Below, in pieces: positions 2,180-34,149 of a stretch of DNA of 64,000 nt (positions are counted from its first letter, which is position 1; each line of letters begins with the position of its first letter). Location: NCBI GenBank assembly GCA_973895155.1, contig OZ316892.1:21515619-21579618 (forward strand), read 5' to 3'. Origin of the DNA: Marsupella aquatica (taxonomy: Eukaryota > Plantae > Marchantiophyta). The position numbers and the translations under genes were made by a program. The notes beneath the pieces are model-generated. The model worked only from the letters and a program-made list of their open reading frames with translations. It did not search any database and was not told the origin of the DNA.

Positions 2180-2444
2180 GAAAAAATCACAGATTCAGAC
2201 CTGCAAGAAATACAATGGACATGTCACATTCAAGCATTTCCCCACAATATACACATGTCAATTACACAATCAACACTACCAAAAGAACTGTCCACCATTC
2301 TTATATAGAAGTCTGTGAACATGACAAACCATTTCCTGAGAATGCAAAAACTATCTCAAAAGTTTCAGATTGATAGTATATACAATAGAACTACAAAAAA
2401 TGATCTGAGTGGTGCACTAACTCTTCAAAATTGAATACTGAGAT

Positions 2445-8249: not shown

Positions 8250-10780
8250 TGACATCCTCATGGGTGTGACCAACCATGAGAAACGACATCTGCACTGTTT
8301 CAAAAACACCTCTACTAACAAGCTCACTGCAAAATGCCATCACGTACTGGTTTTTGTTATCTTTCCCTGAATTATCCATTTGCAAGGTCAGGTGCCTTGG
8401 CAATGGTTTGAAAGAGGTAGACGTAGCCTTGGGATCAACACCAAAGTCATCATCCACCACATTTGATAACCCAAGATCTTGGTCATCTTCAGCTCCTTGA
8501 AATCTAGCAATTGAGACTTTTTTGGGTTCTAAGTAACCTGCGAGAAATGCTTCAAAGTCCAAAAGAGATTGAAAAATTGGCCTCGTTGCAGCCCAATATA
8601 ATCCTTCAAGGAGGTCTCCAGATTTTTCCCCCTTGTAATCCTCCAGATCTCTAAGGCACTTGGCCAATGATGTCACTGTGAAGTCTGCATCTCCCGGCCA
8701 AAGTCCAGTGAAACTGAAGTGAGCATACACTCCGGGATCCCTTCCATGGGTCAACATCCCAATGAGCGCAATGGGGAGCGGTTGACCACTACCAGACAAT
8801 GATTTAGGAGTGGGGACCAACCTAGGGATCCATGTCTTGGCTTGGTCCATCTTGTCATATATAATGCAAAGATAGTTCTCAGGATCCTTCTTCGCAAGAA
8901 CCCTATGAGCATAGTAAACATATCTCCTAGACATTTGCTCACAAAGATGGAGAGCTCTTTCCTCAATCTCTAAACGCTCTTTCTTTCTCTTCTCCCGCAT
9001 CAACTGATCTTTGAACTCAGTGCAAAGTGTACACTTTGCAAATGCACTTCCCTTGTGAAAGTCAAAATTCATGAAGGACTCACTCCAGAGTTTATACATA
9101 GTGTTTTCACTCACCTTCACGTAGCCATCTAATTCCATTTGTGAGTATACCTCCTCAAAAATCTCTTTCTTCGTGAAACAAGATGGAAGTCTGTACTCAA
9201 CTGTGTCAGTACCATGAGACCCTCCATAGGGAAGATGCGGCATGGGTTCTCCGTTTTGGGTTAGAATGGACTCCAACAAAGCATGAGCAAGCAAGGTGCT
9301 TCCCCGTGTCTTGTGTGAACCCTTGTTTCCGTGGAATCCAACCGTGCAACCTGCTTCATATTGATTTTTGTAATCATAATACTTGGCAGTGCTGAATCCA
9401 TGCATTTTAATAAATGCACCCTTGCAAACAAGTCTACTTCTTACAATGAAATATCCTTTTGTCTCCACTTCCTTCTCCCTATAGCCAAAAAGAGTGAGAA
9501 TGTGACTGGTTTTGTTGTCGCTTGACATCCCATGGTATTCCCTCCTTATCGCCTGTAGGTCTTCTCTTGGCATGCTGAGGCAACACTTCAACTTACAACA
9601 ACCTTCTCTTTGGATGGAGTCAATTTCCTCCTCTATGATTTTCAGTATCGCCTGAGACTCCAAGTGCTTCTTTCTTTTTTCATCTGGGTTAACCTTTGTT
9701 CTCTTGATGAAGTTATACTGGCGCTTTGAAAACTCAGTGTCACCTTTCATATCTACCTCTAGATGATCTCGACCATCAATAATTGGTTTCGGAGAAACCT
9801 CTTCAATGAGATCCAGAAGAAAAATACCCCTTGATATCAGCAGAAGTGAACGGACGGCCCACCTAACAAGACCAGGCACTCCTGGGGAGATATTTGGGAA
9901 AAATAGAGGGTCAATCACGCGTGTGACCACAACGTACCCCAACGTGATCTGGCCCAAGGACATCATCATCAATTGCACCTGACTCGAAAGGAACTGTGAT
10001 GATGCCAACCCCCACTTTGGTCCGATTATCCTCAGCATACAATTCCACCTCCTCGGTCATCCAATTAGAACGCAAACTATAATCCTTGAAATTATAATTT
10101 GAAAAAACATCCCGTGTGGACAGGTCGTTTAGTATATCCTGGGAAGAACTCCTCCGAGTAACATCCTTTAAATTCCAGAATACAAAAGTGTCCAATGCTT
10201 CCTGAACGGTATCGGCTCCATTGTGAGGAAAGGGTAACCTCTCCCTTCCTTGAAAAACTTCACATATTTTCACACTAATCCTAGAAGTGCCAAGTCTTTC
10301 ATTGTGACAGGTCTCATCGGGATTCATCTTGAACACAAGATTTCCACGAGCCACAATCTGATTGCCGATCTAGAGCTCAACTTCATTGCCAGATACAATC
10401 GAGTCTCCAAAACTTCCCACCAAAGATTTGTCTGGTACAAAACCGGGAACTGTATCCTTTGTAGAACAAGAGGCATCCATTTCTGTTGTCGTTGGAGTTG
10501 ACTATGACTTCAAATATGCAAAAGAGGCATCCCAAATAATGCAGGAGTCGACAACATCAAACAGGGTCCTGATCGGCGGCAAAGGGTAAGGAATTTCCCG
10601 TGATCCCTCATAGCACTTCTCAATGAGAACTCCAATACGATTACCTCCCAAATCAACATTACGCACTGAGTCACCCGGGTCAACCTTGAGGACGGTCCCG
10701 CAAGCAACTTCCACTCCATCGATTACGAGGCAAACCTTGTCCCCTCGAAAGAAAATCCCCATTTTGAAAATGTGGTCCAA
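8250..10780 (-). pseudogene. Transposase B: three tandem beta-barrel-like repeats (Tnp1/DUF8039-like) plus GHTH-type catalytic domain (DUF7869-like); truncated
   Basis: ORFs 10502-10780 and 9911-10354 are one frame broken by two TAGs, then a 1-nt frameshift near 9935 leads into ORF 8227-10038. Motifs: CCKLKC, FAKCTLCTEF, IIYDKMDQAKT, LQMDNSGKDNKNQY, FLMVGHTHEDV. Repeat unit of the type xVxLxxxxxxVAxGxV...xGV...W. Confidence 0.75.
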
Positions 10781-13280
10781 ACCGTTGGATGTAGTTACCT
10801 CGAGATGATCTCGAGGTAAAGTGACTACAAAAACAAACCAAAAAACCCAAGTGTAGAAGTTTATCCCACAAAACTATGTGATAGAGAAAATAAGAAACTC
10901 TTCTACCTCGAGACGATCTCGAGGTAGAAGAGGGACCAAAAACACCAATATGTAAAAATTCAGAAGTATTTAGCTCGAGATGATCTCGAGGTAGAATATG
11001 AAATCTCACTGAATAGCAAATTCAGATTCTATACCTCCGACTCTCTACAAACTCAATTAGAAGAAGGACAACCGAATGCACCATTAGCTAGAAGGCAAAA
11101 GTTAATAATTTTGAGGATCAAACTTATGACTCGAGATGATCTCGAGCCAAAAAGGACATTGTATTTGACAAAGATACTATTATGAATAATAAGCCACCCA
11201 AAATAAGAACATATAAATGGCTCTAGATGATCTAGAGGAATGATTTGGTGCAATTAAGAAAGTAGGCTCCCAGTTTACTTCCAAACACTGAGAAATAGCT
11301 TCTAAAAGGCCATCAAATAGAGGGAAAAGGCTTCCAAATGGATTTTGACCGACATTAGTATAAGTTGAAAAGGTTTGGTTTTCTAAGAGATAGGAGCTCA
11401 ATTGTTCTAGACCTCCTTCAGAGCTTAAAATGATAATTTCTTGACATATCCTAAACACAAACGTAGAGTCCACAACCCTTAAAAAGAACAATAGAAAGAG
11501 ATTAGAGCAGAAATCTAGAGCCAGAGAGAGGGAGAGGGAGAGGGAGAGAGCAGAGAGAGGCAGAGGGTGAAACGAGCGAGCAGTGAAACAAAATGAGAAG
11601 AATGACCCGCTGGAGAGCAAAGAGAAGCAATATATAAAACCCTGACTGACAAAAAGGCCAATAAGACGGCTTGGTTGAACTTGTGTCACGACTAAACTCG
11701 TGGTAGGGCTGAAGTACGGATAACAATAATGACAACACGTGTGACCGTAATAATGACTGTACGCTCAAACTAGTTTCATGGCAACCTGCATGAGCCCGTG
11801 GCACGCTTGGCACGGCCCTCAAGGCCGACCGCCAAGGGGCTTATAGTGGCTTCTGGGGGTTTGAACTCCCCATTTGCACATTCGCCTCCTTGCCTCCTCG
11901 CCTCCCTCGCCTCCTCTTGCCTCTAGATTTTTTTGCGCTCTTGCCTTGAGATCCTTGTAGTAGCCTCAAGATTAAAGAGGGTCGAGATTAGTTTTTTTCC
12001 TCGAGATTTTATAGGGTCAAGATTTTGTGTTTAGGCTCAAGCTTCGATAGGGTCGAGATTTTCTGTTTAGGCTCGAGATTTGTTTTTAAGTTCTCAGCCC
12101 GTAGTACGTTCCTCTCTTTACCAGCCATGTCTACTGTTGTAGATTTCTCCAAGGAGGACTTTGCTGAGTACAACCTTGCAACCGTTGGGGAAGAGCTTCA
12201 GACCCATCTAGACTCAGCGCATCAGATCCATCGCACCATTAAACGTAATTCATCATCTTTGTTCATTGTTCAGGTTTAACTCAAGATCATCTCGAGCTTC
12301 AATTGGTCCACTTGTTTCTGGATTCTTTGGATACAGTTGAGGCTCGAGATCATCTCAAGCCTATTGATGTTTTCTGCATTACTTTGCTTCAAAAGTTGTG
12401 ATCTATCAATTGATTTTGCATTTGATGTAAGTGGCATGAGGCTCGCGATCGTCTTGAGCCAATATGCATTTCCTGCATGTTACCTTGTCATATTTCTTCA
12501 AGTTGGAAACTCTTATCCTTCAAAATTGAACATCATATCTAAAATATCTAAAATTTCCTTCCTCTAGGGACTTTTGTACCCTCCAACTCATTCTGATCAT
12601 TGACATCCGAACGGGTTTGTGGGTATCAAAAGTCAATGGAGAAAGTGGATTTTAATCATTGATTGAATATGATGTTCATTGTTGAATATGATATTTGGAT
12701 CACTCGTTTGAGATGTTAGGCTCGAGATCGTCTTGAGCCAAATATATTCATCACCATCTTCCATTATGTTCATTCGTATCCCTTGGCCAATTTCTTCCAG
12801 TTGGAAGGACTCCATGTCGTCTACTTCAATTACTAATATCCTATTCAATGTGATCCAAGCTTGCCTTTTGGACCACTTTCTTAGTCCTCCAACTCGTTTG
12901 TGAAGATGACAAACCACTGAGTTAGAGGGTTTTGAATGTGGTCGAATAGGTGACATTGGATCATTCTTGAAAATGTTGTTCGTTAAATTTGACTGGTTTA
13001 TGATATACAATGGAATAAAACCTCAACTGATATATATGAGGATCGAGTTCATATATCATCTCGAGCCCTTGTCTTTTTCTTTTAAATAGATGGTGGCTCG
13101 AGATCATCTCGAGCCTATTGTGGTTCCTAACTATTGTGTTATCTTTTTAGATTTATTGGGGTTGAAATCTCTTTTTAAATTCCCCGGATGAAATGTGGCA
13201 TTGGAACATGTCAGACTATAGTGCATAAAACCGTCAACTCAACTGTCCTAAAAATGAAGGAAGATCGAGATCGTCTCAAG
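9757..13280. repeat. Cluster of 17-bp spaced palindromes CTCGAGA-N3-TCTCGAG
   Basis: Full or near-full copies at 9757, 10799, 10907, 10974, 11130, 11221, 12280, 12343, 12442, 12721, 13097 and 13264, plus half-sites at 11980-12080. Confidence 0.9.
11522..11570. repeat. GA-rich microsatellite in the divergent promoter region of element B
   Basis: gagagagggagagggagagggagagagcagagagagg. Confidence 0.8.
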
Positions 13281-14299
13281 CCACCTATTTGTTTCATGGT
13301 TTGTGGTACATGTTTATGACAATTGCTACATTTTGGCTGTAACAGGTGCGAAATTGGGATCGCCTAATTTGGTAGTCGAAGATGAACATGCAATTGAGGT
13401 TTCCTGCCCTGGACAAGGTCAATTTGGATTCTGTTGGGCCATTGAGCTTGCTGAACTGAAGACATGGAAGGAACTATTATTTGTGTGAAGACGAGGTCTC
13501 CATCAGTCGATCCTCTAGTGTGCAGCCTACTAGGGCCTGTTGTTTCTATTGTGACGAGTAACGGTAAGGACATGGTTTTGACGGTGGAGAACCACAAGAC
13601 AGGGAAGTGGGCTCTAATTAGACTTCACGCCAAAAACTACTCTTGCGATCTTAACATTGAACGTGCAGCCAGGAAACAATTGAGCGTGATATCAATGGGG
13701 TTCTTCCCCGAGGGTTTTACTACAAGTAATTTGCTAGAAGATACTCCTATATCTGGAGCCGACATAATTTTTGGATTCCTTTATTGTCGAAAGTATGGGT
13801 TTGATCGTGATGATGCATTCACAACTCCTTTCACGTGGAAGGTTTTGAGACTAATGTCGGAATCCAAATTGGGGGAGTTTGAATCCATATCCCCTGATTT
13901 TGTGTTTGGAGCCGGAGAATTTGACGAGGATGCTTGTAAAAAGTGGGTGTTGTCTCATTGGAGACAAACAAGAAAATTGAAATCTGTAGCTACGGGAGAC
14001 AAGACATCCGGTTTGGACAAAAAGGAAGCAAAGGTGTCTCAAAAGAGGAAGAGGGTTGAGAAACTCGAAAGCAAAGCGAAGAAGGCTCCAGCTCCAAAAA
14101 AGTCCGTGCCGCCCAAGGTAGATCTCATTCCGGCATCTTCCTCGGGTGTGATTGCACATACCGATGATGATGGCACTCCAGGAGATGCTTCAAGAGAAAA
14201 AAGCGTTAAAGAAGGAGCCAAAGTTCTTAAGGAGATTGAGGAGTATTACACATTTGGCATGAATGAAACTTTTGACATTCCTGTCACTAGTATAGATTC
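12128..14299 (+). pseudogene. 5' half of the element B ParB-MTase cargo gene (N-terminal region, Lys-rich linker, start of ParB-like domain)
   Basis: Putative first exon at 12128 (MSTVVDFSKEDF...IKR/gt), acceptor near 13345, ORF 13464-14306 ending EEYYTFGMNETFDIPVTSIDS. It joins in frame to 26058 across a duplicated ATTC. The upstream exon structure is tentative. Confidence 0.6.
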
Positions 14300-15430
14300 G
14301 CTATAGCAAGATGAAAAAGAGATAAATGACTATTTACTCCTTAATAACTCGATTTCGTTCCCGTTAGGAGTGGATAAGATCGAAAAGACTAAATTGACAC
14401 AATTTGAGAAGTTTACACCAACATTCTTAGGTTGGAGAGATTTCTAATGATCTCCTTAACATAAGTGTTTAACCACAAACTCAAGTGAGTAATCCTTAGG
14501 ATTCACAGTGCAATAATAAAGACTAGAATTAACAAAGATTGAAACTAGAGAGAGTAGGTAGGAGGTTTCAAAGCGCAAGGAAATTGAATTCCGACCATCA
14601 CCACTCTTTCAATAAGGATTATGGCCTAATTTAAGATTCGGAAATCAACATTGTATATGCTTTTTGATTTCTCATAGAAACTCTTCTCCATCTCTTGAAT
14701 TTAGAAGACAACAATGTAAATCAACCCGGGACACTTTTCTGGTCTTACTTAAGACGGTACTAGGATACTCGAATTGGTTTACTTCTCCTACTATCCTTAA
14801 GATTGCTTATTTGAGTTTCACATAAATTCCAATTTCTCTTTGGTGAATCTTCTATATGAATTGGTCACAGACCTTGCTGATCTTCCAATATCATCATAGG
14901 CACACGCTAGTATTCATTGAATATTGCACAATAACTCAAAGGGTTGCTAATCTTGAAACTTCTCTTTACTTAACCATGGTAAAAAGAAGGGAAGATAAGA
15001 CATAGATTTCTCCAAAATCAAAATGGGGAAATCAAATGCATCTCTCTCTCCCGGGGTTGACTTTGGGTTCTCCTCCTTTTGTACTAAAAGTGGAGATTAT
15101 GAAAATACATGCCTCTTCAAAACCCAAGTCTAAAGAAATATGTAAATAAAAGTGAACTATCCTAGTCAAAAATGGAGTAGAGTCTCCAATGGATACACCA
15201 ACAAAATACTGGAGTCTACTTACTCATATACTAGTCTATATAGTTATTTCTAAGTCTAAACTAATGTGGCTCTAACTCTCTAAATATAACTCTATTCTGG
15301 TCCTAGCTTTTGGGAAGGAACCTCCTCAGGGTTAGCCATGGCAAGGGGTTCTGGTCGAAGGACTCCCTGCTGGCCAGTGGTAAAAGGGATGGACGGGTCA
15401 ATATCCATGTTCTCCTGATGGGCACTTGGG

Positions 15431-15952
15431 TCATGAGAATAAGTGTACGTAAGAATGGGAGTGGAAGTGTGTACTGGGAGTGGGGAAACCAGGAGGGTTG
15501 AGGGGTGATGAGGGGCCAGTGGAATAGACTCCTTCATGAGGACTAGGAGAGAAAGATCTGGTAGTAAAGGCAGGAATCTCAGTATCAGCTAATAGCTCCT
15601 CTGTAGTCAAGTCACTCATCTCCCTTAAGGCTTCACAGGTCTTTGAGAGACCCGTAAGTGCATCATCCACCCTGGCACTCACATCTACCACTAAATGGTT
15701 AATCTTGGAGAAAAGGATGGGTGTGGTGTTTTTGGCCAAATACTCATCATAAATTTGGGTCTTAAGAAGATCCAGAGAAGCTATCTTAGTCAAAGGTTCA
15801 ATCAGATCCAAAGATTGAGTGATACTGAGTTGGAGAGTATGAACAAGAAGCCTTAAGGGATGAGTCCAAAGCCTTATTTCTCTTTTCAAAATCTTCATGA
15901 TATTAAAAAGTGTATACCAAAAAACCACCAAAAAATGGTATATATTTTCCAA
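15431..15952 (-). other. ORF of unknown function in the AT-rich left arm of the insertion
   Basis: 173 aa, helical-looking, no recognisable motif; possibly retroelement-derived. Confidence 0.25.
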
Positions 15953-16162
15953 ACTAGACTCAAGAGAATTTTACCACCAAAATCTAAGCATATCTTATAT
16001 GATATTCTCACAATTGTATAAACCTTGAAATATGCACTTTATAAAAGTAATCAAAATCAAACTCATCGATCAGAGTTTAAGTCAAACTCAAAGTTTTACA
16101 AAATATAACCCAACTTAAGCCCAAGTGGTTTCAAATGCTACGAGTCCCTCTATTTATCTAGT

Positions 16163-19100
16163 CTAATCCAAAGGGACCGCTTCCCCTTCGTCGGTTCCGG
16201 AAGTCCCTGTCGTCAATTCTGGAACAATTGTGGCATCGTCAACCACACTATCCTCTCCGGCCTGAGGAATGTCTTCCTCACTCTCCTCATCCATCTCCCC
16301 CTGTCCGTCTTCCTCTTCAATGTTATCTGCAAGGTTAAGAATCCTCCCTTTCAACACACTGCTCTGTCGCTCGTCAATCTCAATGGCAACGCAATGTCTC
16401 CCCATGGCCAAGGAGGAGGTTGTCCCAGTCCCTGATCCTGAACAAATATCCAAAACCCAGTCTCCAACCTGACTAAAATGACTCACTTCCCAATCTAACA
16501 ATGCACGTGGTTTCTGATAAACATTCACTGCCTTGTTATCCCCGTTGTGTTTCAGCTTCTTAGTCACAGCTGCGCATACAACCACATTGTTCCTTGATTC
16601 ATTTGTGTCAAAATTGAAGTGCTCCAATGACCGTTTACCATCCTGGCTGTGAAAGCCAATTGTAAAGCACTCAAAGTTGCTGTTCAATCTTGGTCCACCA
16701 GCATTCTTCACATTATCCTTAACCCTGAAAAGTCACAAAAAGTCAAGGAGTTATTTAAACTGAGAAACATGGTTCATGAAATCATGAATAACTAATAGTT
16801 GTTTTTTTCAAAAACAAATATTTCTTACCACACACAATTCTGGAACCCTCCATTACACTCCGCTTTCAAAACGGTCTTGATGGCCTCATATTGGTCAAGG
16901 CTGTGGTGAATGATAATACGCCACAACTTTGCAGTAGTAGCCACCTTGAACGATTGGACCATTTTTGTGATCTCCTCAGTTCCCCATCCAATAGTGTCTT
17001 CATGAAGACATCCAGGCAATGCAAACCCGTAGGGAATATCCACTAAAGCTAATGTGTAAGCCCGACCCGGAACCACCTCATGTAATCGCTGAGCATCATG
17101 AGTAAAAATATCATAGTGCACATCACCAAACTCTGGATGCTCAAACGAATTTGGATGAAGTTCCCCCTCTTGGGTTTGCCGACTAGAAGTCTTCATGGAT
17201 AGCCAATTTTGGGCTTGCACAATATGCGCATTGAATTTGTCCGGGAATGACTTGAGATCTTTGCCTTCCTCATCTCCCTTCTTTTTCCGGGAGGTGGTAT
17301 CTTTCTACAAAAAGGAACTGTAGAATTAGAAACAAGGATTCCAAATATTAAATGAATTCAAACAATCATTCGAAGAAAGGTGACAGAATCTTACCCATGT
17401 CTGGAAAACAGGTACAAAATTCTTAAGCACATTGTCTGTGCAATGCTCAGGGTACTTGGTTTTACAACCTGACCAACTCTCCTCGTGTAGACACGTGAGG
17501 AAGGCCTTCTGCACCTGCATCTGAAATTTGTGTCGAGTAAATTCGTGACCCATTTCCTGTAAAGAGAGTTCTTTAGTAAGAACTCTCTGTAACACTGGGC
17601 AAATCATATCAGGATCTTTCAAGGCCTGCATGTGTCTCCACTCTGTTAATTTCATGTCCTCATAAGGCAATTTGGCATCTCCAGACTTAGAGACTTTCTT
17701 CTTGCCTTTGTCTCCTTTTTGACCTTTGATCTCACACATCTCCCACTTGTCACAAATCCGCCTCACAAATGACCACACAGGATCTTGTCGGAATGCCAAC
17801 TGAAATAGGTTATCATTGGCATTAAGAACCTCAGCATCCTTTCGTACACCCCAATCCTTGAGATTGATTTCAGTAGCACACTCTTTCTTGAAATCCTGGT
17901 TGGACGACAATCCATTCTCAACAAATCTCATGTGAATATAATTTACTCTCTGGATTGTCGTCATCTGTTGTCGAAATTCAGAATCAATATTGTGACTCCA
18001 CGCAAGGTTTCTTGCCTCTTGCACACTCAATCCCGCAAATATCCAAGATTGCACTCTCCGAAATGCCTTGTTGTTAGGGAACTGAAGAGCAAGGTCTGCT
18101 TTGGCACAGGCTGAATGGTTGCCCCCAATCACATAATAATGGTAATCAGCTTTCCTTGAAAAATCAAAGTCTTGCCTAGTAGCACACTCCTTCGGATCCA
18201 CCAAGAGGACAAACGGAGCTGCAAGTGGACTGGCACCTACAGTCTTCATCCGCAAGGTCAATTGGGTCAAGAAATATGGTTGGATGTGTCGGACCTGGTA
18301 AATGGGCAAGCCCACAGCCTTCTCTCTCACTGGAGGGTAAAGTTGACCAATGTTAACGGTCACGGTCTCCTCTTGAACACCACATCTTCCCAGAATCTCC
18401 TCCTGGTACAATACCCGTGCATCCATTGACATTGATTGAGCCTTTTGCTCCAAATGCGTTGGAATTTTCTCCAAAGTCTTCTTTTTGGACTTTGTAGCAC
18501 TGGGCTCGGTAGGCTCAGGAGTCATAGCAGGTCGCTTCTTTGAAGAAATGCGAGTTCCAGTCGTACCTTGTGCCGACCCACCAGTCAAAGCCGTTCCCTG
18601 GGATGATCTGCCAACTTGAGATCCCCCTCCAGATGCTGCTGCTTCCCGGGAGGTTGTAGGCGCTACCACGGTCAAAATATCATCGGGTAAAATGCTAGGC
18701 CTCGATCCAGAAGGAACACCGGAAGCCCCAGATTTGGGTGGACGACTTACTCCCTTCTCTGCCGACCTTTTCCGGAGAATCTCTCTTGATTTTCGGATTG
18801 CACTCTTTAAAGTGCTAGCGTGAAATTCAAACACAAAACCGGAAATCTTTCCCGCGACGTCGTGGTAACGTTCCTCACTCAAAAGAGACTTGACAGTCTC
18901 AATGATGCTATCGATGTCCTCATCGAGATAGCAGGTGGCAGCCGTTCCAGAAAACCTCTCCACATCCACGACAATCAAAGTTGATGTTTCCTTCGTTGTG
19001 ATCAACATGTTCACAACTTCGTCGCCCCGTTGAAATACATCGATGCGGCCGTAATTTACCCACCCTAATGCCCCCGATGGAAGCCCCTCAAATACACACA

Positions 19101-19224
19101 GCATTAGGAAGGGCTTCTTCCATGTTTCCGTCCCTAAGGAAATCGTCCAGGATGAGTTGTGGAAGTCCGTCAAAGGATGGCGCGAAAAGATGTCATCCAC
19201 CAGCTCTTCCTGCGACATTGTCAT
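16163..19224 (-). CDS. ParB/Srx-like domain plus beta-class N6A/N4C DNA methyltransferase fusion; 3 exons, 955 aa, apparently intact
   Basis: Exons 19224-17395, 17304-16829 and 16724-16163 with GT-AG introns of 90 and 104 bp splice in frame (2868 nt). ParB-like motif YYVIGGNHSACA. MTase motifs in beta order: LALVDIPYG (IV), CVWVK...NFE, VNVYQKPRALL, GDWVLDICSGSGT (I), GRHCVAIEID. Confidence 0.85.
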
Positions 19225-19388
19225 GTTTTTGCCTGATCTTCAAACCTGAGAACATACCACAAAATCAGTCCACTTCAACCCCAACCTGCGAGACAAAGTG
19301 CCACAGAACCAAGGAATGTGCCAACAAATGGCTACTAAAACCGTGTCCTTACGGATCTAACAACGCTCTCGGCCACCCCAGGACTCCT

Positions 19389-19496
19389 ATCATGAATTCA
19401 TGAAGGGAGTCTCCCTCTCGCTCCGACCTTCATGAATTCATGAAGGGAGTCTCCCTCTCGCTCCGACCTTCATGAATTCATGAAGGGAGTCTCCTC
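19389..19496. repeat. 40-bp tandem repeat (about 2.6 copies) carrying palindrome TTCATGAATTCATGAA in the divergent promoter of unit A
   Basis: catgaattcatgaagggagtctccctctcgctccgacctt at 19391, 19431 and partially at 19471. Confidence 0.9.
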
Positions 19497-20043
19497 TCTC
19501 TTTGCTTGTACACCTCGGTGATGCAGAAGGGTATTTAAAATAGGGTTCGGAGGGGGGTGACGTGAAGAAATCACCCAGGGCCTAAATTACTACCTAAAAC
19601 AGGGTCGAAATGAAGTGCGACCGCGACAACTCGCGACACGTCGCCGATGAGTGCTGAAAATGGCACGAAATTGGATAGCGAGATTGTTTTTCACTCTTTT
19701 ACAAAGGAAATCCAAATGACATTGAGTGAAAATGAATGGGCTGCCCCGTGTTCCTTGGTTATACATACTAATCACGGATCAGGCGCGACTTAGTAAAATT
19801 AACCCAGAATCATGATAAATCAATGTTTTTGGGCCAATTATTCATGAATATTTCGGGGTATTAACGGGAAAAAGCTTGCAAATTTCATGAATATTTGATA
19901 TTTTTGAAGTTAAAAAGTCCCAACAATCCGTGAAAAACTATAAATAGGCTCGTTTATTCATGACTCTTGGTCATTATTTTGAGAACATTTGTTAGATTTT
20001 ACTGATTTTCTGAGTTTCCTGTCAATTTGCACTAGTTTTTCTA

Positions 20044-23000
20044 ATGGCGGCGTGTTACGAATCAGATGATTATTCAGATGGAGTTTCTGATGATGTTTCA
20101 TTGCCGGATGGCCCCTGCACAGTGGTTGGCCCAGATATCCCTGGAATAACTACTGTTTTAGATATGCCACCCCCCACCCCTATGAGCAAGTTAAAACGTA
20201 GTCCTTTACGACTTGCAATTAGTGGGAAGAAATCATTGGTCGGTGGTAAAGAGAGGTTAGGGAGCTCCTCTGACTCCTTGGAGAGTATTGGTCCCCCTGG
20301 ACGTCAAGTTGTATCTCCTTTGTCACCAACAAAGGACAAATTGGGGAGTAATCTGGAAGGTTCAATGCCTATTTGGATGTCTGGGAAACGGTCTCATGAA
20401 TTCATGAAGACTGGATTTGGAAAGACGAAGAAGGCACTAAGTGGGGAAAATGACAGAGATTTTTGCAGTCTGCAAAGTGTTCAGCGGCTGAAGCAAATGC
20501 CAAAAAGTAAAACCTTTGGTAAGCCAACGTCGGAAACATTTCACAGGGGGATGAGGGAAGAAACTAGACGACCAGTGTTATTGAAAAGTATTCCAGAAAA
20601 GAATTCTAATGTGCGTTCCTCAGTTTTACCTAGGAGTCATGGTGTTGGGGCAGGGAGCGGATCAAGTCACGGAAACTCAAACAGGGAAACCAACCTGGTG
20701 GAGAGGGACCCTAGGAAAATATTGAAAGGGTCCCTACACGGTAATGGAGGGATTTCTGAAATACGCCCAGGTATTCCAAGGGTGCATAGAGTGAAGGAAG
20801 AGCCTCCATCTCCGAAGGCTGCAGGTCTGGAATCTAGGCATGTTCAGAAGCAAATGTTGGTGACCATTTCATCATCGAATGAAAGCGAGTCTTCGGAGAG
20901 TGGGGAGGATGATGATGTTCCGGTGGCATCTAGTCGTTACAAACGTACGAGCAACGCCACTTTGTGTGAAACAAAGTTGAAAGAGGAGGATATCAAGAAA
21001 ACAAATAGTAAGTACTGTTGTCAGAGTCATTGTCTCCTAAGTCTATCTCCAAAAGAAATTCGTGAGGCCCGTTCTAAATTTTTGAGGCAGAAATCTCAGG
21101 ATCGATCTTTATCTTTGCAGTGGCTTATAAAGCGAGACGGAAATGAAGGAGGGAGGCAGACTATATCTTACACGTTTGGTCAAAAGAGTATTTGTCGGAA
21201 AGCTTTCAAGCTTATATTTTGCGTTGGCAATCATAGATTAAATAGAATTTTGAAATTAGACAACCAAGACTTAGGATATTCTAAACCAGTTGGACGCCCT
21301 CCATCTGTTAAAAGATTAGTCTTGGTCAGTTGGCTTAGGTCGTTTTTTGAGACACGCGTGGAAACATTGCCAAATAAAGAAGTTTCACATTTACCGGATA
21401 ATTATTCAAAGCTGGAGGTATGGAAGATCTACGACTCCAACTATGCCAAGATTGATGAATCTTCAAAAATATCCTATTGACAATTCTTGAAAGTTTGGGT
21501 TCAAGAATTTGGTCATGTGAAGATTCCTCCAGTCAATCGATTCAGTGCTTGCGCGGATTGCGAGGAGTTCAAATCAATTCGGGACAAAGCTGTCTCGGAG
21601 ACCGAAAAGAGTAAGTTGCTTACAAGTTTGACAAGTTTTTGTTTCAAGAATATGGCTTAACACATGATTTCTAATTCTTTTTGAAGAAACTAACAAGTTG
21701 TTTTTCCAGGGCGAGGGGAAATTATGTTACAAAAACATAGAGACCAACAATCCAAAGAACGTGAGAAACTCGCGAAGCATCGTAAGAAATGTTTTTCAAA
21801 TTCTGATAAATATTTGGGAGTTGTCATTGATGGGATGGATCAGAAGAAGACAAGGTTGCCTCATTGGCCGCGGCCCCCAAAATCGGTGGACGAAACATGT
21901 TTGATCCAAATGCACGTTGTCGGATGCCTGGTTTTCAATGGTGCACTATTTTCAAGAGTGTTTCTTAATTATCCTGTATTGCATAATGATGGAAACTTGA
22001 CAGTCACAATCCTGCAAAGGGTGTTTCACGAATGGGAAGAAAAGCCTGGTGGCTTGCCGCCTGTTCTCTATCTTCAACTTGATAATACCAGTAGAGAAAA
22101 TAAAAATAATTTACTCTTTGCCTATCTTCATATGTTGATTCGAAGAAAGGTTTTTCGGAAAATCAAACTAGGATTCTTGTTGGTTGGACACACACACGAC
22201 CAAATAGATCAAATGTTCAGTCGATTTTCTAAACGACTAGCAAGGTTTAAGGCATTCACATACGAAAGCCTATGTGATATTATTTGTGAATCATATCAAC
22301 CCCAACCAAATATCGCTCTTTTAAAGGAAACATATGATTTCCGTCAATATGCCTTCTCAGATCCACCTTTAGTCATTGAAAGGATTCGAAATGTTACCTT
22401 CCACCACCAGTACAAATTTGCATTTGACAAGTTGGAAAATCAAGTTCCAACCCAATGGGGGAAGAAGTTTTCCACGGACTCAACTTGGAAACCTGACGGA
22501 GGCGTGAAATTTTTGAGGGAAGAGGAGCCAGAAAAGGTGATGGGTTGTGCTCCCGGATTACCCCTTTTCAAAAAGGGGGATAAGAACGTTACAAGGACTC
22601 AACCAAATATGTCTAGTTCTTCAAGAATGACTTTGAAGGAGATGGATGATTCGTTAAATGAGATTCAAAAGGGAATACTTGCAGTTGAAACTTTATTCTC
22701 AGAAGAGGAAGTGAACTGGTGGAGAATGTTTTTTGAAGAGCAACGGGAATTGAATAAATCTTTGCTCCTTGATCAAAGACCATTGATTTTCCCTTTTCAA
22801 TGGCCACGCTCCCAAAGGGAGATTGCTGTTGCTGCTGAAGTTCCCAGAGTCCTTGTCAATGAAGAGGAAATTGAAGAGAGAGTATACGGACCTACCAGAG
22901 ATATATACGTGGGTCCTTATCGGAATCAAGGAAAGATAGATGCAGAGAAGGAGAATATGGAAGGAGACTTTTCGGATCTTGAAGTCAACACTTATATTTC

Positions 23001-23442
23001 TGTTGCTGGAGAAGAATCGGAAACATTTTGGGTGGCCAAGGTGGAAAGAATTGACCAGCGCGACGAGTTCAACATTCCAAAAATGATTTATGTTTTATGG
23101 CATGCTCCAAAAACCGGGTCAGATCCTTGGAAAGCCAAGTACTTACCAGAAGTCTTAAACTACGAAAAGAAGAAAAGTGGTCGTGGGAAAGGAACTTTGA
23201 AACCAATATGGTTTCACCAAGAGCTTGATTTATCTTCAACGACTGTTTTTGCTTACAACTTCATGTTGACAAAATCTGATACATTGTACAAAAAGACAGT
23301 AGATCGAATCAAAATCCGATTGACTGAATTTTTGGCAGAAGAGAAAGAGCAAGAACAAGAGAATGGATCAACTAGAACCCCGCTAGGAGATAAATCTAGG
23401 GATATTTCGTTTCAAGAATTGAGAACTTCTGGATCTGAGTAA
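20044..23442 (+). pseudogene. Transposase A (GHTH-type, DUF7869-like), 2 exons, about 1099 codons with one premature TGA; C-terminal SH3/Tudor/BAH-like region
   Basis: ORF 20044-21480 reads through TGA into FSACADCEEF; intron 21611-21709 joins it in frame to ORF 21724-23442. Motifs CCQSHC, ICRKAF, VIDGMDQKKT, YLQLDNTSRENKN, FLLVGHTHDQIDQMFS are colinear with transposase B. Confidence 0.8.
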
Positions 23443-23976
23443 TGAAAAGTAGTTATTGTTTATGACATTACCATTGAAAAACATGGATAACTTGAAAATT
23501 TACAAATTTTCAAAATGCCTTTACCACTTATTCATGAATTCATGGTTAAAGTTTCTTGAGAAATTTGTAGTTTAATATTATCTTAGTGGGTTGTGTTTCA
23601 ATTCAATTAGATGGTGTCATTTCTATTCTCCTTGTCTTCTTTTCACAATAATGTGTATCAGGTTAAGTTGTAGTAATTTATTTTCTGGTTTTTAAATGAC
23701 AATGGCTTTTGGAGGTGATTTAGTTGTTGTTTCAAAAGACACCTCGTGTAATTGTGAGACCATTGTAGATAATAGTGTTGTATTTGAGATCATTTATTGG
23801 TGGAATGTAACTTCAGATGAATTTGGTCATTTTTAGGTGTCAAAACATAGCTAGTTTATGTCATATTTTGTTCGCTCCATATTTTTGCTCTAAAATAGGT
23901 GCTAATTTTTGCACTTTTTTAGACTTTTTCGTTGTTTTTCTGATTTTTTGGCTAGAGTTCCTAAAGTATGGGCTTG

Positions 23977-25275
23977 TTACTCATCATTTAAGGCTTCTTG
24001 TTTATGCTCAAGCTCATTCTTCTTCTTACTCCTTTCCAACTGCTGTTTGAGTTTAGATACCTTCTTCTTGAGGAACTCATTCTCCTTCTCCAACTTCCTC
24101 TTATCTGTGGCATCACTCATGGTGGAGATCTTTTCAAGAATCTGCCCTGGTTTCACTCCTAACGTCTGAGAAATGTCAGTGATGGCCTTCTCCATCACAG
24201 TGGTCTTCCTCTTCACCTTCTGGAATGTGTCTGAGATGATCTGGAAATCAGCTAGGGTGTCTAGGGAGGCATGGCCGGGTGCATCCGGAAATTCAGCTGG
24301 GTCGACGAAGTCCGGGTTGAGGTTCCGGGCAGTAGACCGGGTCTTTCAAGGATTTGTCTCTGCTGGTTCCTCATCCTCACTGTCATCAGAGGTGGCCTAG
24401 GTGATATCTGGATCTGCCTCTCCATACTTTATGAAGTTGAACTTGGCCAATAGTAATTTCTTCTCCTCTCTGAACAAGACTCCTTCAAAGCTATATAGAT
24501 GTACCAGGTAGCAGGAGAGGGGAGTAGGACTCTTATTGGACAGGTTCTGTACCAACTTCCTTATCAAATCAAAGATAAGCTTAGCCCAGTTGACTTTTCT
24601 TTCTCCCTTGTAAGCAGCAACAATGGTAGAGCCAACTCCAACAGTAACTCTTCGTGGCTTCTCAGGATATAGCAGGGGTAGCAGGAAGCTGAAGACTCGT
24701 TTCAAATCAGGATCCAAACACTTAGAAACATTGAACCCGTCCTTACTATTGATGGCTCCTTTGAAGTAAGGGAGGATTAGATTGACAGCTCTCCCCACTG
24801 GACCTTCTCCTTCATCTTCCAATACAAAAGCTCCTGCAACCATCATCTGAGTCCATCGCTCAGGTCGGCCTCTGGAGGTATCCTTAAACTCAGCCGGACA
24901 CTCCTTGGATCGGATCTCTCTGATCATATCTTCGCTCTGATAACTCCAGGGTAGCTCCATCAGAGACTCACAGCCCATCCTGAGCAAAGACTCCCTCAAT
25001 TTGACCTTCTCAGCTTCATTGTCCGGAATAGCTGGCCTCAGAATTTTCATGGCAATGGGGACCTCCTTTCTCTTTGATCGTCTCACAGGGGCTTTAACCG
25101 GAGTGGGTGCAGGTGATGTTGAGGTTGAATGCCCCTTAGAAACGCGAGAAGTGGATATTCTGGCTGGATCCGCCCCTTGCTCCATAGGATTTCTGGAAGT
25201 AGCAAATTGATTTTTGATAAATGGTTTGCCTTCTCTACGGCAAGCTCCACAATGATGCGGCTTCAGAATGTTCAA
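23977..25275 (-). pseudogene. Plant transposon-associated protein (Transposase_32/PMD-like) with coiled-coil tail; two internal stops
   Basis: ORFs 24397-25275 and 23977-24216 share a frame across TAG and TGA. LMELPW...KVNWAKLIF...LSCYLVHLY parallels LASLP*...RKWASYF...FASHIEIIL in the ORF at 55974-58622. Confidence 0.55.
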
Positions 25276-26053
25276 TCTCTTCGGTGTCGACCACTGGTAG
25301 AAATGTCCGGGTCGACCTGGCCGCAGCGTTTCTGATCAACTGACGAGCTTTTCTGGAACAGTGTATCAAGATTCCGTCAACCAAAATACAGGTGCATCGA
25401 ACTTGGGGAAAAGCTAGACTCAATCGGGCCTGCAATGGTGATGTCCGGATCGACCTGGCCTCCCTTCTCACAACCGATGTATCCACAATCAGGATCTTAA
25501 ACTTTTTGCCTTCACTTCCAGCGGTGGAGTAGGCATTCCCCTCACAACGAATCAGTCAGTACCCTCATATCTAGGCTCTCATCATGCAATGCAAGATTGG
25601 TCCTATAATCCGGACCCAAGATCCTCTACCAAAAGGGTAGAGCCTCCTCACTCTACTACTTAAACAGCCTAATGCGCTTGGGAGCTCAAAACCTATTAAG
25701 TTCGGCTTTGAGAGGTGTGAGAGGCCGGATCGACTCTCCTTCCTTATATCCGGATTCTGCTGTGGTCGTGCCTGTGTTTGACTTATGGTTTTAAAAACTT
25801 TGGCAATGGACAGCTATTGTTCATAAGAGTCATGGTATAAGCTTTTATATCTCATCATGGCTTATAGTAAAAAGTTCCGGGTCGATCATCCTTCTCTAAT
25901 ATCAATCCGGGTTGACCTCAGATGGGCTTGAAAGTCTCATACCACTTCAAAGTAGTCTTCAGGTCCCTCTTCAGCCTCATTTGAGATCTTAAACATAAAA
26001 ATTCTAAAATTTATGATTAGTTAACCCTTCTTTCATAAACATCCTTATCTCAC

Positions 26054-28841
26054 ATTCACCGTCTGCAGTATTGGTATATAGGATGTTCAATAAAGATCAT
26101 GCCATGGAGGTCGCAAAATCCATGGTTAGAAACCCTGGAATGGTACTAGCTGTGGCGGATTTAATTCTGTATTCAAGAGAGAGTTTGCAGTTGCTCCATT
26201 ATGAGAATACTCCTGAGGATCGAAAGGAGTTTGAGTGGGGTGTTAAGAATAAGAAGGTGCAGTTCCTTGCAATTAGTGGACAACACTCGGTAAAGGCAGC
26301 TGTTTGGATCATAGGTTGGGCTAAGAGCGATGCAAAGTTGAAGGAGGTCGCGAAGAGTCTACAATATCGAAAGTCACAAATTCTTTCGGACAAAACTCCA
26401 AGAACAATACTTGCTCAACACTCACAAAGGGCAAATGCTGTTAATAAGACCATGGAGTATGAGTCCTATTTTCTTGATACTATGGTCCATGCCCGTTGAC
26501 AGTTTGACGAGTGTGGCCGTCCTGAGAGACCCGTGATTGGGTCCAATAGACTAACAAATTATCAAAAGTTCGAACTCAAATCCATTTCTAGCTCGAGATT
26601 GTCTCAAGCCTCGAGGTCAAGTTTCTGTATTTGATTTATCTTCGTGTATTCTCCCATAAATTTCAACATAGTTCCTTAATTCTACCTCAAGATCGTCTCA
26701 AGCCTCAGATTTTCTTTGTACTGTTTGGATCAGGATTGTATGGCCTTGGCCAAAATAACGACTGGAAAATCCGATCTGAAGAAATATTTTTTGGTTGCTG
26801 TTTTTGGAAGAGAACCTCTTCCAAACTTGGAGACAAATGTGCATCGATTGGGTCAAGGGACTTCTTCCGGATGGTCTAGGGGAGTTAGGTTCAAGAATAA
26901 ATGGGAAATCCCGGACAACAAAAATGATTACGCCGGCATTGTTTAGATGCTTTGAAGGAGACCTGAGTAGTGACAACATTCTGAAAGTTTTTACTGCCGT
27001 TCAACAATAGAAGGTTTTATTGAAGAAAGACCCAGCCAACAAATTTGATGTTCAATCAATGAGTGATATGGCTCATACTTTTAAAGTCATGACGAAGCTG
27101 AGGGCAAAAATTGTGGAGTACTTCATTTTGAAGTATCCGGATCGGTTTGCCAATTCACTCACTTGGTTTGAGCTAACTCAATTTTTGCCTGCATTTATGG
27201 ATCGTGGTGAGTTGCCTAAACTTAGACAACTTGTTGGAGAGGTTTGGATTTCCAACCTCCTAAAAAGAAATAGGCCAAAAGACCCATTTCCGCAAAGTCT
27301 CATTGTTAGGCTTGAGCAGATATATTGCAAGGTATTTGGCGGGATGCCTTCAATGGAGGATACTCCTTATTGCACATTTTTTAGCGATAATTTGATGAGG
27401 ACAATGAAGCCTGAGATTGTTGACTCGGTGCAAAGGACGTGCCCACTTTCCATTGTCGATTTTGGTCATCTTCGATAACGGCAGTGGACAGATGCCAATT
27501 TTTTTGTCTTGTTGGAGTATTGTTTGTAGATGGCGAACTCGACGGAGCTCTTGGTAATCTTTTTTGTCCGTCAAGGCCCATTGATAGGCCAGATTCAGAG
27601 TGCCTTTGAAAAGATTTTTCGTGAGAAGAAAGTCCACACGAAGCTGGAGTACGGGAGCTACTACCGTGATCAGCTGCCCAAGGAGGAGGGAGATTTTCTC
27701 ATTGGAGCCCGAGACTCAATCATCTTTGGGGGAATTTATTGTCAAGAGGAACCAGACTGGTCCCAAATTTTCTTTGATGACTTTTATGCATTTTGGAACT
27801 ACACTGAGAAATGGGACAGACTTCACAGTCTTGCCTTTGAAGGCCCCTACTGGGAACAACAAAGACCAATCAAAGGGGAAAGATAAGCTCGATGAATCCA
27901 CTGTTGATGTCAAAGTTTTGGAGAAGATGGCCCCATCTTATGAGATGGTCGGTCGGTGGGGTGGCTTTGTAAATCCGAGAGCAAAGCCTTTGCGAATGAC
28001 AAAGCATCTTGTTGATTATTTCTCGTGCCCAGGTCAGACAGTGTTGGATTTCTTCTTTGGAGGACAGACATTGAAAGCTTGTGTCATTCTTGGTCGGGAT
28101 TGTTTTGTGTATTTGGACACAGCTCAAGAGATGGAATTCACAGAAGCCTTTGCTCAGCTCCTTCATGACAACAAGCAGGTTTTATATGTGCCACCCAAAG
28201 AGCCGTTAGCATCTGAGGAAATTACTGCCGGTCCCCTCGTTCTTATAGAAGAGACGGCCTTAGACATAGCTCCGGTGGAAGCCAGTGTTTATGAGGAAGT
28301 ATTTGAAGAGAATTTAGAGCATTGCAAAACGGAGGGCCCAAAAATCACAAGCTACGTGGAAGAGGAGGGTGAAATAATGCCTGAATTTGGAAATGATGCT
28401 CGAGATGATCTTGATGTTCCAGGTGTTTCTTCATCGGGTGGCCTTGGGGATGCACAACGTGAACAACAGTCTTCAACCTTGGATGTTGGCTGGGAGTCCA
28501 CCTTGTAGGATGCAGTTAGCCAACCAATTCCAAGCCCTCCTCAACTGGATGAGATTTTCTCTACTAAGAAAGCTAGTGGCTGCCATACTCCCCCTCAAGA
28601 CGAGGCAGGTGCATCATCCCCTCCCTTGGACCAAATGTTTTGCGCTTCAGAGAATAAGCTTGTTTTCACAGATTCTTCTACTGGAAGCCCCGTAATTCTC
28701 CCTTTTGTTAGGAAACCGGGGACTGAAATCGGTAGAACTGGTTACAAATCACTCAAAGCAAGTGCTACTCATTATGTTTGGACTGATGGACCGTCAAAAG
28801 GTCAACAAGTCTCTATAGAGCAATCTGAGAAGATTATTTGA
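26054..28841 (+). pseudogene. 3' half of the element B cargo gene: ParB-like domain and degenerate amino-methyltransferase
   Basis: FLAISGQHSVKAA corresponds to YYVIGGNHSACA of gene A. FVNPRAKPLRMTKHLVDYFSCPGQTVLDFFFGG...LGRDC corresponds to VNVYQKPRALL...VLDICSGSG...MGRHC. Several stops and frameshifts. Confidence 0.75.
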
Positions 28842-29262
28842 TCTAGAAAGTATAGGAAGGATAAGTTCAAATTAGTGTCAGTTTGGTCTGAGCCAGCTCT
28901 TGTTGAGACCCTTCTTGGAGGGATAAATTTGGACATCCAAAACCAACTAGGAGATAACCTTCTAGATGAATTTGGGTCTTTCAGCATGTGAGGTTGAAAC
29001 CCAAGTAAGTTTGAACAGTCCTGAAATTCAGCCGTCTAAATTATTATGTCTATCTTCACAAAAATAGGCGGGCCCTTACCAGTTGTGGAGTGCGTCGATA
29101 ATAATCTCCGAAGATGTCCTGAGATTTCTTCAACTACTGACCTTCAACCAACAATAGGTATGATGTTGACTGTTGTTCATTCACTTGTGATGCTTGAGAT
29201 CGTCTCGAGCATTCCTTTGTTTTATCTCCCACAATTCTAACATTGGTGTTCCTTCTTTGCAG

Positions 29263-30023
29263 GACCCTTGCCTCCACTTCACGGTCCGATCAGACGGAAG
29301 CTATTGATTCTTGACCTCAACAAAATGTACTGGGATTCTGTCAAAACGCCAAGTTCCGGACCGCGTCGTAGTGCAACAAGTGTCAAGGGTGTCCACTGGG
29401 GGAGACGTGGAGGGTTTAACTTTATGTATGTTGAGCGACCCCATCTTCACGAGTTCTTAATCGCAGCTTTTTTGTTATTTGATGTTGCCATTTGGACTTG
29501 TGCAAGGAAACCCAGGACAGATGAAATGATTCATTTGATCTTCAGTCAAGAAGAGCGAGAGCAATTCAAGTTTATTCCCACACAAGAAGATACATTCGAT
29601 ACTGGAATCCAGAGGCCTGACATTACCGATGTGAAGGAAAATATTCATTTGAAGGATTTGAGGGTTGTTTGGAAACATTATGGTGGATTATATGACGAAA
29701 CTCATACACTCTTTCTTGATGACACTCCAATGAAGGCGTTTGCAAATCCAGAGAATTGTGGGTTGTTTCCTTCCTCATTTTTGCATCACTCCACGGATGA
29801 TACATTCTTTCCAGAAATACTGTGGCCTCTGCTCAGAAAATTGTATCATGCCTTCAATCTTCAGCACTACCTTTTTATCAATCATCCAAAGTGGTCTATG
29901 ATAAATGTTTTATCGGACAGAGATCAATAGGCTTCCATTTATGCGTTGTTGACGGAGCGGTGGGATAGTATGGTATGGGTTCATTCGGTTATCCATACAG
30001 TCTTGGATGTCACAGTGGACGAA
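29263..30023 (+). pseudogene. FCP1/NIF-type HAD phosphatase domain exon, cut by an LTR insertion at 30024
   Basis: RKLLILDLN...ERPHLHEFL...FDVAIWT...KDLRVVW...YDETHTLFLDDTPMKAFANPENC. Acceptor at 29262; the frame continues past TAG 29928 to 30023. Confidence 0.85.
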
Positions 30024-32890: not shown

Positions 32891-33173
32891 CCGTCTCGAA
32901 ATAGTCGCCTCTTCTAAATAAGGACGGAACGTTGTATGCCCCATCATAAAGACCTTTCTTATCCCTTGTCACTTGCTTAGAACTCAGTAACCTTCCATTC
33001 CACTATCTTTCCTATTCTACCTACTTAAGTTCCTAAAACCTAGTTACTCCGATAGCACTTCAAACGTCTTTTTTACTATTCCTTGTTCAAAAAGCAAAAA
33101 AAATGACAAGTTTTTTACATAAACCTATATCGAGCCATTCCACAACAAAATTCCTTGGGATGTCAAGAATGAA

Positions 33174-33446
33174 GTGCAAAAATTACCACCAATAGAGGAA
33201 TTGACGGAGGAGGAGATCAACGACCTTGCAAAGATATTAATTGGAGATCAGTACATAGGACCCTATAGAGACAATCATCGGGGATTTGTTTCGGAAGTCC
33301 TGAGGTGTAGGGACCTCACCACGGAGTTCTGGAATAGAAAGCCTCTCGATTTTTGCAATCGCGATATGAAATATGACCCGTCAGGGTCTAGATTTACTTG
33401 CTCAAATGAATTCTGCGGGGTGGAGGAGCATGAGATTTGGGTCTAG
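33174..33446 (+). other. Small ORF in the right arm of element B, unknown function
   Basis: About 90-110 aa protein-like frame with acidic helix and CxxxxC near the end; bounded by element B palindromes. Confidence 0.3.
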
Positions 33447-34149
33447 ATTATCTCGACCCTACATTGAACAGTTACGATGTGAGTTGTAGATATACATATT
33501 CTTACTCGAATAAAGAGTGAAGCTATGCGTACTATCCATTTGGGTCTAGATGCTGTTGATCCTCTTTTACTTGTAGATATGTTCTCAAAAAAAGGTTATT
33601 TGGGTCTCGATCCTATACAAAGAGAATAGCTAGAGATATAGATTCAACAACAGGTCAAAATTATGTGGACTTTACATTTGGGTCGAGATAATCTCGACAT
33701 AGATTTTTACATAGTAATTGATATACATTCAACAACCGGTCAAAACCATCTAGAGCCTGCATTGGGGCAGACGTGGTCTTGACCCTGTGAAAATAGGTTT
33801 TTTACTTTTATAATACATCACTGGTTTACCTTCCCTGTTTGTGTAACTTGGTTATCACGAGTCATTTGAATTTATTATATTGTCTTATTCTATTTTTTCA
33901 CTATTTATATTTTATATAATAAGAACACTTTATTATCTTTTAATTAATAATTATTTATAATTGTTAACTGAATTATTTAATTAATAATTTGGGCATTAGA
34001 ATTATAATTTTAGACCTCAAAAAGTGTATATTTGGCCACTAAAATATATGCTTTTGGGGTACAAGTTATAGAACTTTTGGGGGTAAAATAATAAATTTGA
34101 AGGTCAACTTCTGGACTAGAAAAATTCCAGTTTTAATGAATAGGGTGAT

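Follow-up and report, generated by a model that had tools for sequence, protein, structure and literature searches.

We analysed a 64,000-nucleotide stretch of the liverwort Marsupella aquatica (GenBank assembly GCA_973895155.1, contig OZ316892.1, positions 21,515,619 to 21,579,618, forward strand), hereafter the window. Its DNA is repeat-rich and eukaryotic and holds copia elements as well as a Skp1 fragment with an intron. Within it lie two transposon units, each with a DUF7869 transposase gene and, on the opposite strand, a helper gene that joins a ParB-like part to a methyltransferase-like part. Unit A is a real transposon bounded by terminal inverted repeats (TIRs), with exact ends and empty sites. 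Unit B is an older, distant and decayed family of the same logic whose methylase is probably dead. The two are nested: unit A sits within a 3.6-kb host element, which sits within the helper gene of unit B. The features of unit A are as follows.

15842..24002: unit A, complete Sola1-like TIR transposon, 8,161 bp (empty site, TIR, target site duplication)
15838..15841, plus strand: left target site duplication (TSD), TATG; right copy at 24003-24006
15842..15873, plus strand: left TIR, begins AACAAGAAGCC; 15 bp perfect, ~32 bp imperfect
23971..24002, minus strand: right TIR, inverted repeat of the left TIR
16163..19224, minus strand: helper gene A, 955 aa, three exons (19224-17395, 17304-16829, 16724-16163; splice model)
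17974..18390, minus strand: ParB/Srx-fold domain, ~residues 279-417, with conserved YQVR, GGNH and HN..R and a predicted homodimer surface (AF2, Foldseek, alignment)
17506..17967, minus strand: helical domain like the DNA-binding domains of ParB, KorB and SopB, ~residues 420-573 (structure search, weak for the domain alone; whole-chain Foldseek)
16163..17304, minus strand: exons 2-3, methyltransferase, with motif IV DIPY (residue 699) ahead of motif I DICSGSG (residue 861) (motifs, Pfam)
16774..16787: palindrome in helper intron 2; the same intron holds one in L001, L002 and L003
19390..19483: intergenic, three TCATGAATTCATGA palindromes spaced by 40 bp (word scan)
20044..23442, plus strand: transposase A, DUF7869, ~1,100 aa, with a single intron near 21611-21709 and a premature TGA at 21478-21480 (Pfam scan, splice model, alignment)
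20394..20407: palindrome within the first transposase exon; another copy, with one mismatch, at 23532

The termini of unit A are inverted repeats opening AACAAG. Public contigs from four runs of three studies, one of which may be the window's own source, were aligned on positions 13500-26500 at 85% likeness. At this setting the joints stem from other repeat copies, that is, they are true empty sites. Two such joints were recovered, 15837->24003 and 14300->26059. The first, from which unit A is absent, was present in 3/4 runs, with four ambiguous letters that equal TATG on both flanks; the fourth run has a variant junction at this site. Deleting the 8,161 bp together with one TATG restores an in-frame host open reading frame (ORF) of 249 aa. 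Together, the empty site, the TSD, the TIRs and the restored host ORF indicate that transposase A and helper A moved as one unit. Contig depth over unit A reached ~500-620 in run X1, compared with 21 for diverged contigs, which hints at many near-identical copies, depth not being a copy number.

The Sola superfamily is described as having TIRs and a 4-bp TSD (PMC10741241), and unit A has both, with its TATG duplication, 15-bp perfect TIR and empty sites. Its termini have AAC..GTT in common with those of the brown algal element Sola1-1_Ec32. Insect Sola1 elements are described as preferring AWWT targets (PMC3845634). The TATG of unit A departs from this preference at the single insertion examined, and the Ectocarpus Sola1 family is likewise not described as AWWT in the accessible text of its report (PMC12477816). 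Sola2 was rejected, as its DFAENY, DG..QYKN and SHGK..CDG core motifs were not matched in a by-eye comparison with part of the Sola2 alignment. Set against published descriptions of TSD, TIR and termini, unit A is likely of Sola1 type.

A preliminary description of this DNA, made from the letters alone, had proposed an intact spliced ParB-methyltransferase gene head to head with a transposase. Both points stood. The 955-aa frame has no internal stop, its introns are GT-AG and 90 and 104 nt long, and both intron positions recur in all three related metagenome loci (L001, L002 and L003; ~65% DNA identity). In unit A the two genes are 820 bp apart, ATG to ATG. Across eight exon comparisons, the proportion of synonymous differences (pS) was 0.69-0.83 and that of nonsynonymous differences (pN) 0.17-0.29. 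The lowest pN fell in the exon that binds S-adenosylmethionine (SAM), and synonymous divergence was near saturation. These data indicate that helper gene A is intact and under purifying selection. The protein consists of an N-terminal domain, a linker, a ParB-like domain, a helical DNA-binding-like domain and a beta-class amino-methyltransferase. One contig of run X1 skips approximately the span of intron 1 (17306-17390); this is not evidence of splicing.

How widely is this gene family distributed? A profile search with the helper protein returned 432 clusters at 50% identity. Among 30 members looked up, named plants and algae were Chara braunii, Riccia sorocarpa, Calypogeia, Adiantum and Ginkgo, and named animals were Ptychodera, Saccoglossus and Exaiptasia. 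The ParB-methylase fusion itself is present in Chara, liverworts, fern and Ginkgo. When 42 family clusters were scanned, 7 scored above the PF01555 cut-off and one more below it. The nearest named relative of helper A is a protein of the liverwort Calypogeia fissa, and a ParB tree (22 rows; 4 dropped) likewise places helper A beside Calypogeia. A peptide-pattern search for relatives found none among 91 candidate stretches of viral contigs or among 20 from prokaryote genomes, and tblastn against phages gave six weak methylase matches. Two family entries have unusual layouts: P0017 (Chara CBR_g41648) holds two tandem ParB-methylase units in one 1,825-aa model, and P0068 has a SAM domain ahead of the family match.

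The amino-terminal half of helper A is predicted to have a ParB/Noc/KorB-like fold. An AF2 model of residues 236-610 reached a pLDDT of 90.5, and the best 12 of 13 Foldseek matches in the PDB at E<=0.001 were all Noc or ParB; viral matches were ParB/Spo0J-like. VIA structure searches returned PadC (Z 9.7, root-mean-square deviation (rmsd) 3.3, 99 residues aligned) and KorB (Z 8.3). Features of the protein in the Atlas pointed to DUF3723 and ParB_N clusters. The G, G and H of GGNH are near-invariant across 52 aligned rows. AF2, Foldseek and VIA therefore agree with the earlier assignment of a ParB/Srx fold to the GGNH domain. The accompanying expectation for a domain search was realised in part: PF01555 was found and ParB was recognised by structure, but Pfam and PDB sequence searches did not detect ParB. 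The helical domain alone gave weak matches to the KorB DNA-binding domain (Z 4.9, rmsd 4.5, 111 residues), SopB (Z 4.0) and ParB (Z 3.5).

A homodimer through the ParB domain was predicted with a score of 0.61, compared with 0.00 for the best of three controls. The runs agreed in at least 53% of contacts, with pLDDT of at least 71. The mark set for this score is reached by 17/29 eukaryotic homodimers and 0/30 single chains. ParB dimers have already been solved, so this pass may reflect memory.

The carboxy-terminal half carries PF01555 in exon 3 (35.3 bits; cut-off 26.7), with motif IV ahead of motif I and intact catalytic and SAM-loop motifs. DxPY occurs in helper A and in 5/8 relatives with methylase motifs, and SPPY in neither helper A nor any of the eight relatives compared. 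By a published rule, in the accessible part of its source, DPPY and SPPY tell N6-methyladenine (6mA) from N4-methylcytosine (4mC) enzymes. By family and structure, the closest methylases are CcrM-like adenine enzymes. Judged by its DIPY motif, this half is a beta-class amino-methyltransferase of the 6mA type. That the enzyme is active and writes 6mA is an even call. The kinship with the 4mC enzymes DN4MT and N4CMT raised in the preliminary description is unlikely, and the link to DN4MT was rejected on motifs, helper A having DIPY and not SPPY.

Domain scans found DUF7869 in both transposases, whose cores are 36% identical. Transposase A is interrupted by an in-frame TGA at codon 479, a stop that the preliminary description does not mention, in a region that 41 aligned homologues keep as coding. 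It carries DGMDQ, LDN and GHTHDQID as putative catalytic (DDD) motifs. A transposase tree (18 rows; 8 without the cut motifs dropped) supported 3/15 branches and was mostly unresolved, with transposase B on a very long branch. A search of the Atlas with the transposase minus PF25273 gave no match, and no paper naming DUF7869 was found in the literature searched.

Are the two genes linked elsewhere? The metagenome scan recovered three loci from 28 stretches, and L001 alone has enough upstream DNA to address linkage. There, 1.0 kb from the helper ATG, lies a divergent ORF that opens MAACY like transposase A. Its N-terminus is identical to transposase A at 15/21 residues, which beats 1000/1000 shuffles; the contig ends before the transposase catalytic core. 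Riccia sorocarpa has two pairs of a DUF7869 gene and a ParB-family gene (tags 010795/010796 and 017504/017506). Of nine listed ParB-family genes, two have one of the 32 listed DUF7869 genes no more than two locus tags away (P 0.0008 if genes were placed uniformly). The proposal that the genes travel together in other copies and species, as a conserved element design and not by chance capture, is thus supported by L001, by Riccia and by purifying selection. P0003 and P0172 come from source contigs that are both 8,829 long, a hint of linkage only.

An unbiased scan for gapped palindromes returned one dominant word per element. For unit A this is TCATGA-NN-TCATGA, of which all six copies in the window lie inside the unit (0.36 expected), 470-3,628 bp from its ends, and the word is unlike the TIR. 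The intron 2 palindrome is kept in 4/4 relatives, with 11/14 motif columns invariant compared with 9/50 flank columns. In A, L001 and L002 the palindromes upstream of the helper gene are spaced 40-42 bp from one another, and the words are enriched in the relatives (L001, 5 against 0.07 expected; L002, 3 against 0.01). All three L002 sites have changed in concert to TCATGC-TA-GCATGA, and the L002 protein carries several residues seen in it alone within the presumed recognition region. These data suggest that the helical domain quite probably reads the family palindrome.

Unit B and the element that splits it comprise the following features.

8250..10762, minus strand: transposase B, DUF7869, decayed, ends right after GHTHED (Pfam scan, reading frames, motifs)
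13347..14300, plus strand: helper gene B, part before the insertion (homologous outside proteins)
14301..26058, minus strand: host element, unclassified, 3.6 kb without unit A (14301-15841 and 24003-26058; empty-site joints of public contigs)
26059..28841, plus strand: helper gene B, part after the insertion, with an SGQH motif of ParB-like type, a degenerate methylase, a frameshift and stops (outside proteins, hhalign, Pfam)
9757..29209: 16 palindromes, CTCGAGAT-N-ATCTCGAG, up to 3 mismatches (word scan)
29241..29930, plus strand: NIF/HAD phosphatase ORF, maybe a third (cargo) gene of unit B (PF03031, E 4e-15), directly after the palindrome at 29193

The two units have no nucleotide match by blastn, as had been noted. 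The earlier joining of helper B across the insertion also proved right: the empty site 14300/26059 is present in 4/4 runs, the halves join in frame, and two outside proteins cover both halves, with Arg at the position of a stop in the window. The gene is decayed, however, with several stops and two frameshifts, and the first exon proposed at 12128 is supported by none of the homologues. Where helper A reads VDIPY and DICSGSG, helper B reads IVDFGH and DFFFGGQT, and PF01555 scores 28.4 bits on this one decayed copy. Judged by these motifs, the unit B enzyme probably cannot methylate. Homology between the ParB parts of A and B is weak by hhalign (probability 24%, E 0.0008), though consistent with the motifs, and the AF2 model of the B-family ParB part is of low confidence (pLDDT 40.6).

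The unit B word has 18 copies in the window against 0.12 expected: 16 are in unit B, 14 of them non-coding by our exon model, and none is in the 11.8-kb insert. The palindrome at 29193 suggests that the phosphatase ORF possibly belongs to unit B. The frame of transposase B is broken by two stops and one frameshift, and the gene is truncated at 8250. It opens with a tandemly repeated ~80-aa domain (9914-10873, minus strand; E 9e-8) that is absent from transposase A. The host element took in unit A, splits helper B and belongs to neither unit. It ends TG...CTATAG on the minus strand, neither a TSD nor a TIR was found at its ends, and its ORFs are coiled-coil-like only.

The novelty that the preliminary description left open does not extend to the basic design. 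In Ectocarpus, Sola1-1_Ec32 (2025) is described as carrying an opposite-strand gene for a ParB-like and N4/N6-methylase protein, with self-modification proposed (PMC12477816). It is a Sola1 element, as unit A likely is, and shares with it a 4-bp TSD, AAC-starting termini (AACCG there) and the opposite-strand helper (1104 aa there). Compared by description, it differs in its brown algal host, its length of 21.5 kb and its 282-bp TIR, and its main text does not contain 'palindrom'. Part of the idea is also published for the Plavaka elements PAG2/PAG3 of Bostrychia (10.1101/2025.02.11.637652), described as having a transposon-borne ParB, nearby inverted repeats and a PF01555 gene in the element, with self-binding proposed. 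Unlike unit A, those elements have an EnSpm-type transposase, a ParB fused to a 2-oxoglutarate (2OG) oxygenase, a separate gene for a methylase-SET fusion, and repeats in tandem arrays that are not dispersed. In both algal reports the self-binding and self-marking ideas rested on domain names alone. An intact gene, exact ends, a candidate site per family and a natural variant make the self-marking idea directly testable.

Helper A resembles bacterial ParB, Noc, KorB and VirB in its predicted ParB-N domain, putative helical DNA-binding domain, predicted N-domain dimer and candidate palindromic sites. It differs from them in lacking GERRxRA, in its 9-18% identity, fused methylase and eukaryotic introns, and in that no ParA was seen. 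The VANDAL elements of Arabidopsis have transposases of the Mutator-like superfamily. Their VANC (PMC5735166), like helper A, is described as encoded by the element and as having target motifs that are specific to the family and differ from one related element to another; it is an unrelated protein beside an unrelated transposase superfamily, removes 5-methylcytosine (5mC) and lacks a methylase. Marchantia DN4MT1 and bdelloid N4CMT (10.1101/2021.02.12.428880, PMC8885841) are likewise described as eukaryotic amino-methylases of the beta class with a bacterial origin, but have SPPY, write 4mC and are host genes, and ParB is unmentioned in the accessible parts of both texts. Iyer 2016 describes methylases fused to ParB-helix-turn-helix (HTH) domains from chlorophytes and chytrids, and few such enzymes in land plants. 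A land-plant description of the design was not found in the literature searched; subscription journals, Repbase reports, Iyer 2011 and the Bostrychia supplements may hold one. Unit A is a land-plant member of a recently published design, and what it adds is the wide plant range, the exact ends and the family-specific candidate sites.

Our best explanation, which we lean towards by a small degree, is a cut-and-paste transposon, likely of Sola1 type, whose ParB-methyltransferase helper likely binds the element's palindromes and would write 6mA on the element's DNA. The helper would dimerise through its ParB-fold domain, the dimer would bind the scattered palindromes of its own element via the helical domain, and the bound protein would write 6mA on nearby element DNA. 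With one protein paired with one palindrome per family, its action would be confined to self. Tentatively, by analogy, the mark or the bound protein may keep the divergent promoters usable or time transposition, as KorB or VirB do at operators or as VANC does; VirB is described as an anti-silencer (PMC10653881). If self-marking is true, land plants would have a source of 6mA encoded by an element, and a second answer to host silencing beside, and unrelated to, VANC. We are more doubtful of a larger version, a streptophyte transposon lineage from Chara to Ginkgo with a private ParB-parS-like system, in which a dimeric clamp loads, spreads and writes 6mA while recognition helix and palindrome co-diversify. 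Land plants would then have a DNA mark written by a transposon, and the helpers would form a natural collection of methylases addressable by site.

Several observations weigh against self-marking. In Riccia, 7/9 ParB-family genes do not adjoin any listed transposase, the lists being incomplete. The helical-domain matches are weak (Z 3.5-4.9) and mixed with unrelated helical proteins, and the covariation of site and protein is confined to a single locus, L002. The Box II arginine patch of ParB, Noc and KorB, described as GERRxRA and CTP-binding (PMC10653881), is absent from the family, which has GGNHSxxA instead (GGNHS in A); the ParB-like clamp suggested earlier thus has the predicted fold but not the canonical patch. 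Methylase motifs are degenerate in helper B and in the Ptychodera relative, so methylation is not universal in the family, and this methylase domain is reported, in the accessible part of the source, to have switched repeatedly between 6mA and 4mC. In the unit B sites, 10/24 mismatches are C>T or G>A at CpG, and CpG is depleted in units A (0.63) and B (0.57); together these indicate that 5mC silencing was not escaped lastingly.

Some of these points would fit a helper acting chiefly as a regulator or scaffold that binds DNA at specific sites, such as a KorB-like repressor of the two divergent promoters or a bridge compacting the element for transposition, with an accessory or dead methylase fold. 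Unit B has degenerate methylase motifs and yet 16 palindromes, the sites of A, L001 and L002 cluster between the genes at regular spacing, and KorB is among the top structural matches. We consider this unlikely, because in the A family constraint is equally strong on the methylase exons and the ParB exon, and the relatives from Chara, fern and Ginkgo retain DxPY and SGxG. Binding to internal repeats is common among transposases. The reader of the palindromes might then be the transposase, or else a host factor, with the helper acting on RNA, target DNA or host chromatin; eukaryotic amino-methylases are described as often shifted to RNA. The sites lie away from the ends and are unlike the TIR, however, each family has its own word within one genome, which would not be expected of a host-factor site, and ParB-type dimers are described as reading palindromes (PMC10653881), which makes this reading improbable.

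The same mechanism could instead write 4mC, a mark that could keep 5mC off that base. PF01555 covers both types and specificity has often switched, but the absence of SPPY from A and eight relatives and the closeness to adenine methylases leave this quite improbable. Finally, the helper gene might be passive cargo captured by chance: 30/32 listed Riccia DUF7869 genes have no known ParB gene beside them, and the transposase tree is mostly unresolved. We find this barely credible, as pN far below pS already contradicts it, the orientation is kept and the pairing recurs in brown algae.

The rest of the window holds other repeats. An element with 743-bp inverted repeats (96%) at 30024-34898 interrupts the right side of unit B and contains two B-like palindromes (33441 and 33682) and an ORF at 33123-33443. 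A 731-aa open frame at 2-2194 (minus strand) has no Pfam or NCBIfam match and is possibly another transposon gene. Degenerate tandem arrays with 17-19 bp periods lie at 40325-42543, 48379-48811 and 61068-61193. At 55974-58619 (plus strand), a GC-rich ORF pair with a coiled coil and little CpG depletion (0.86) is likely a young unrelated element.

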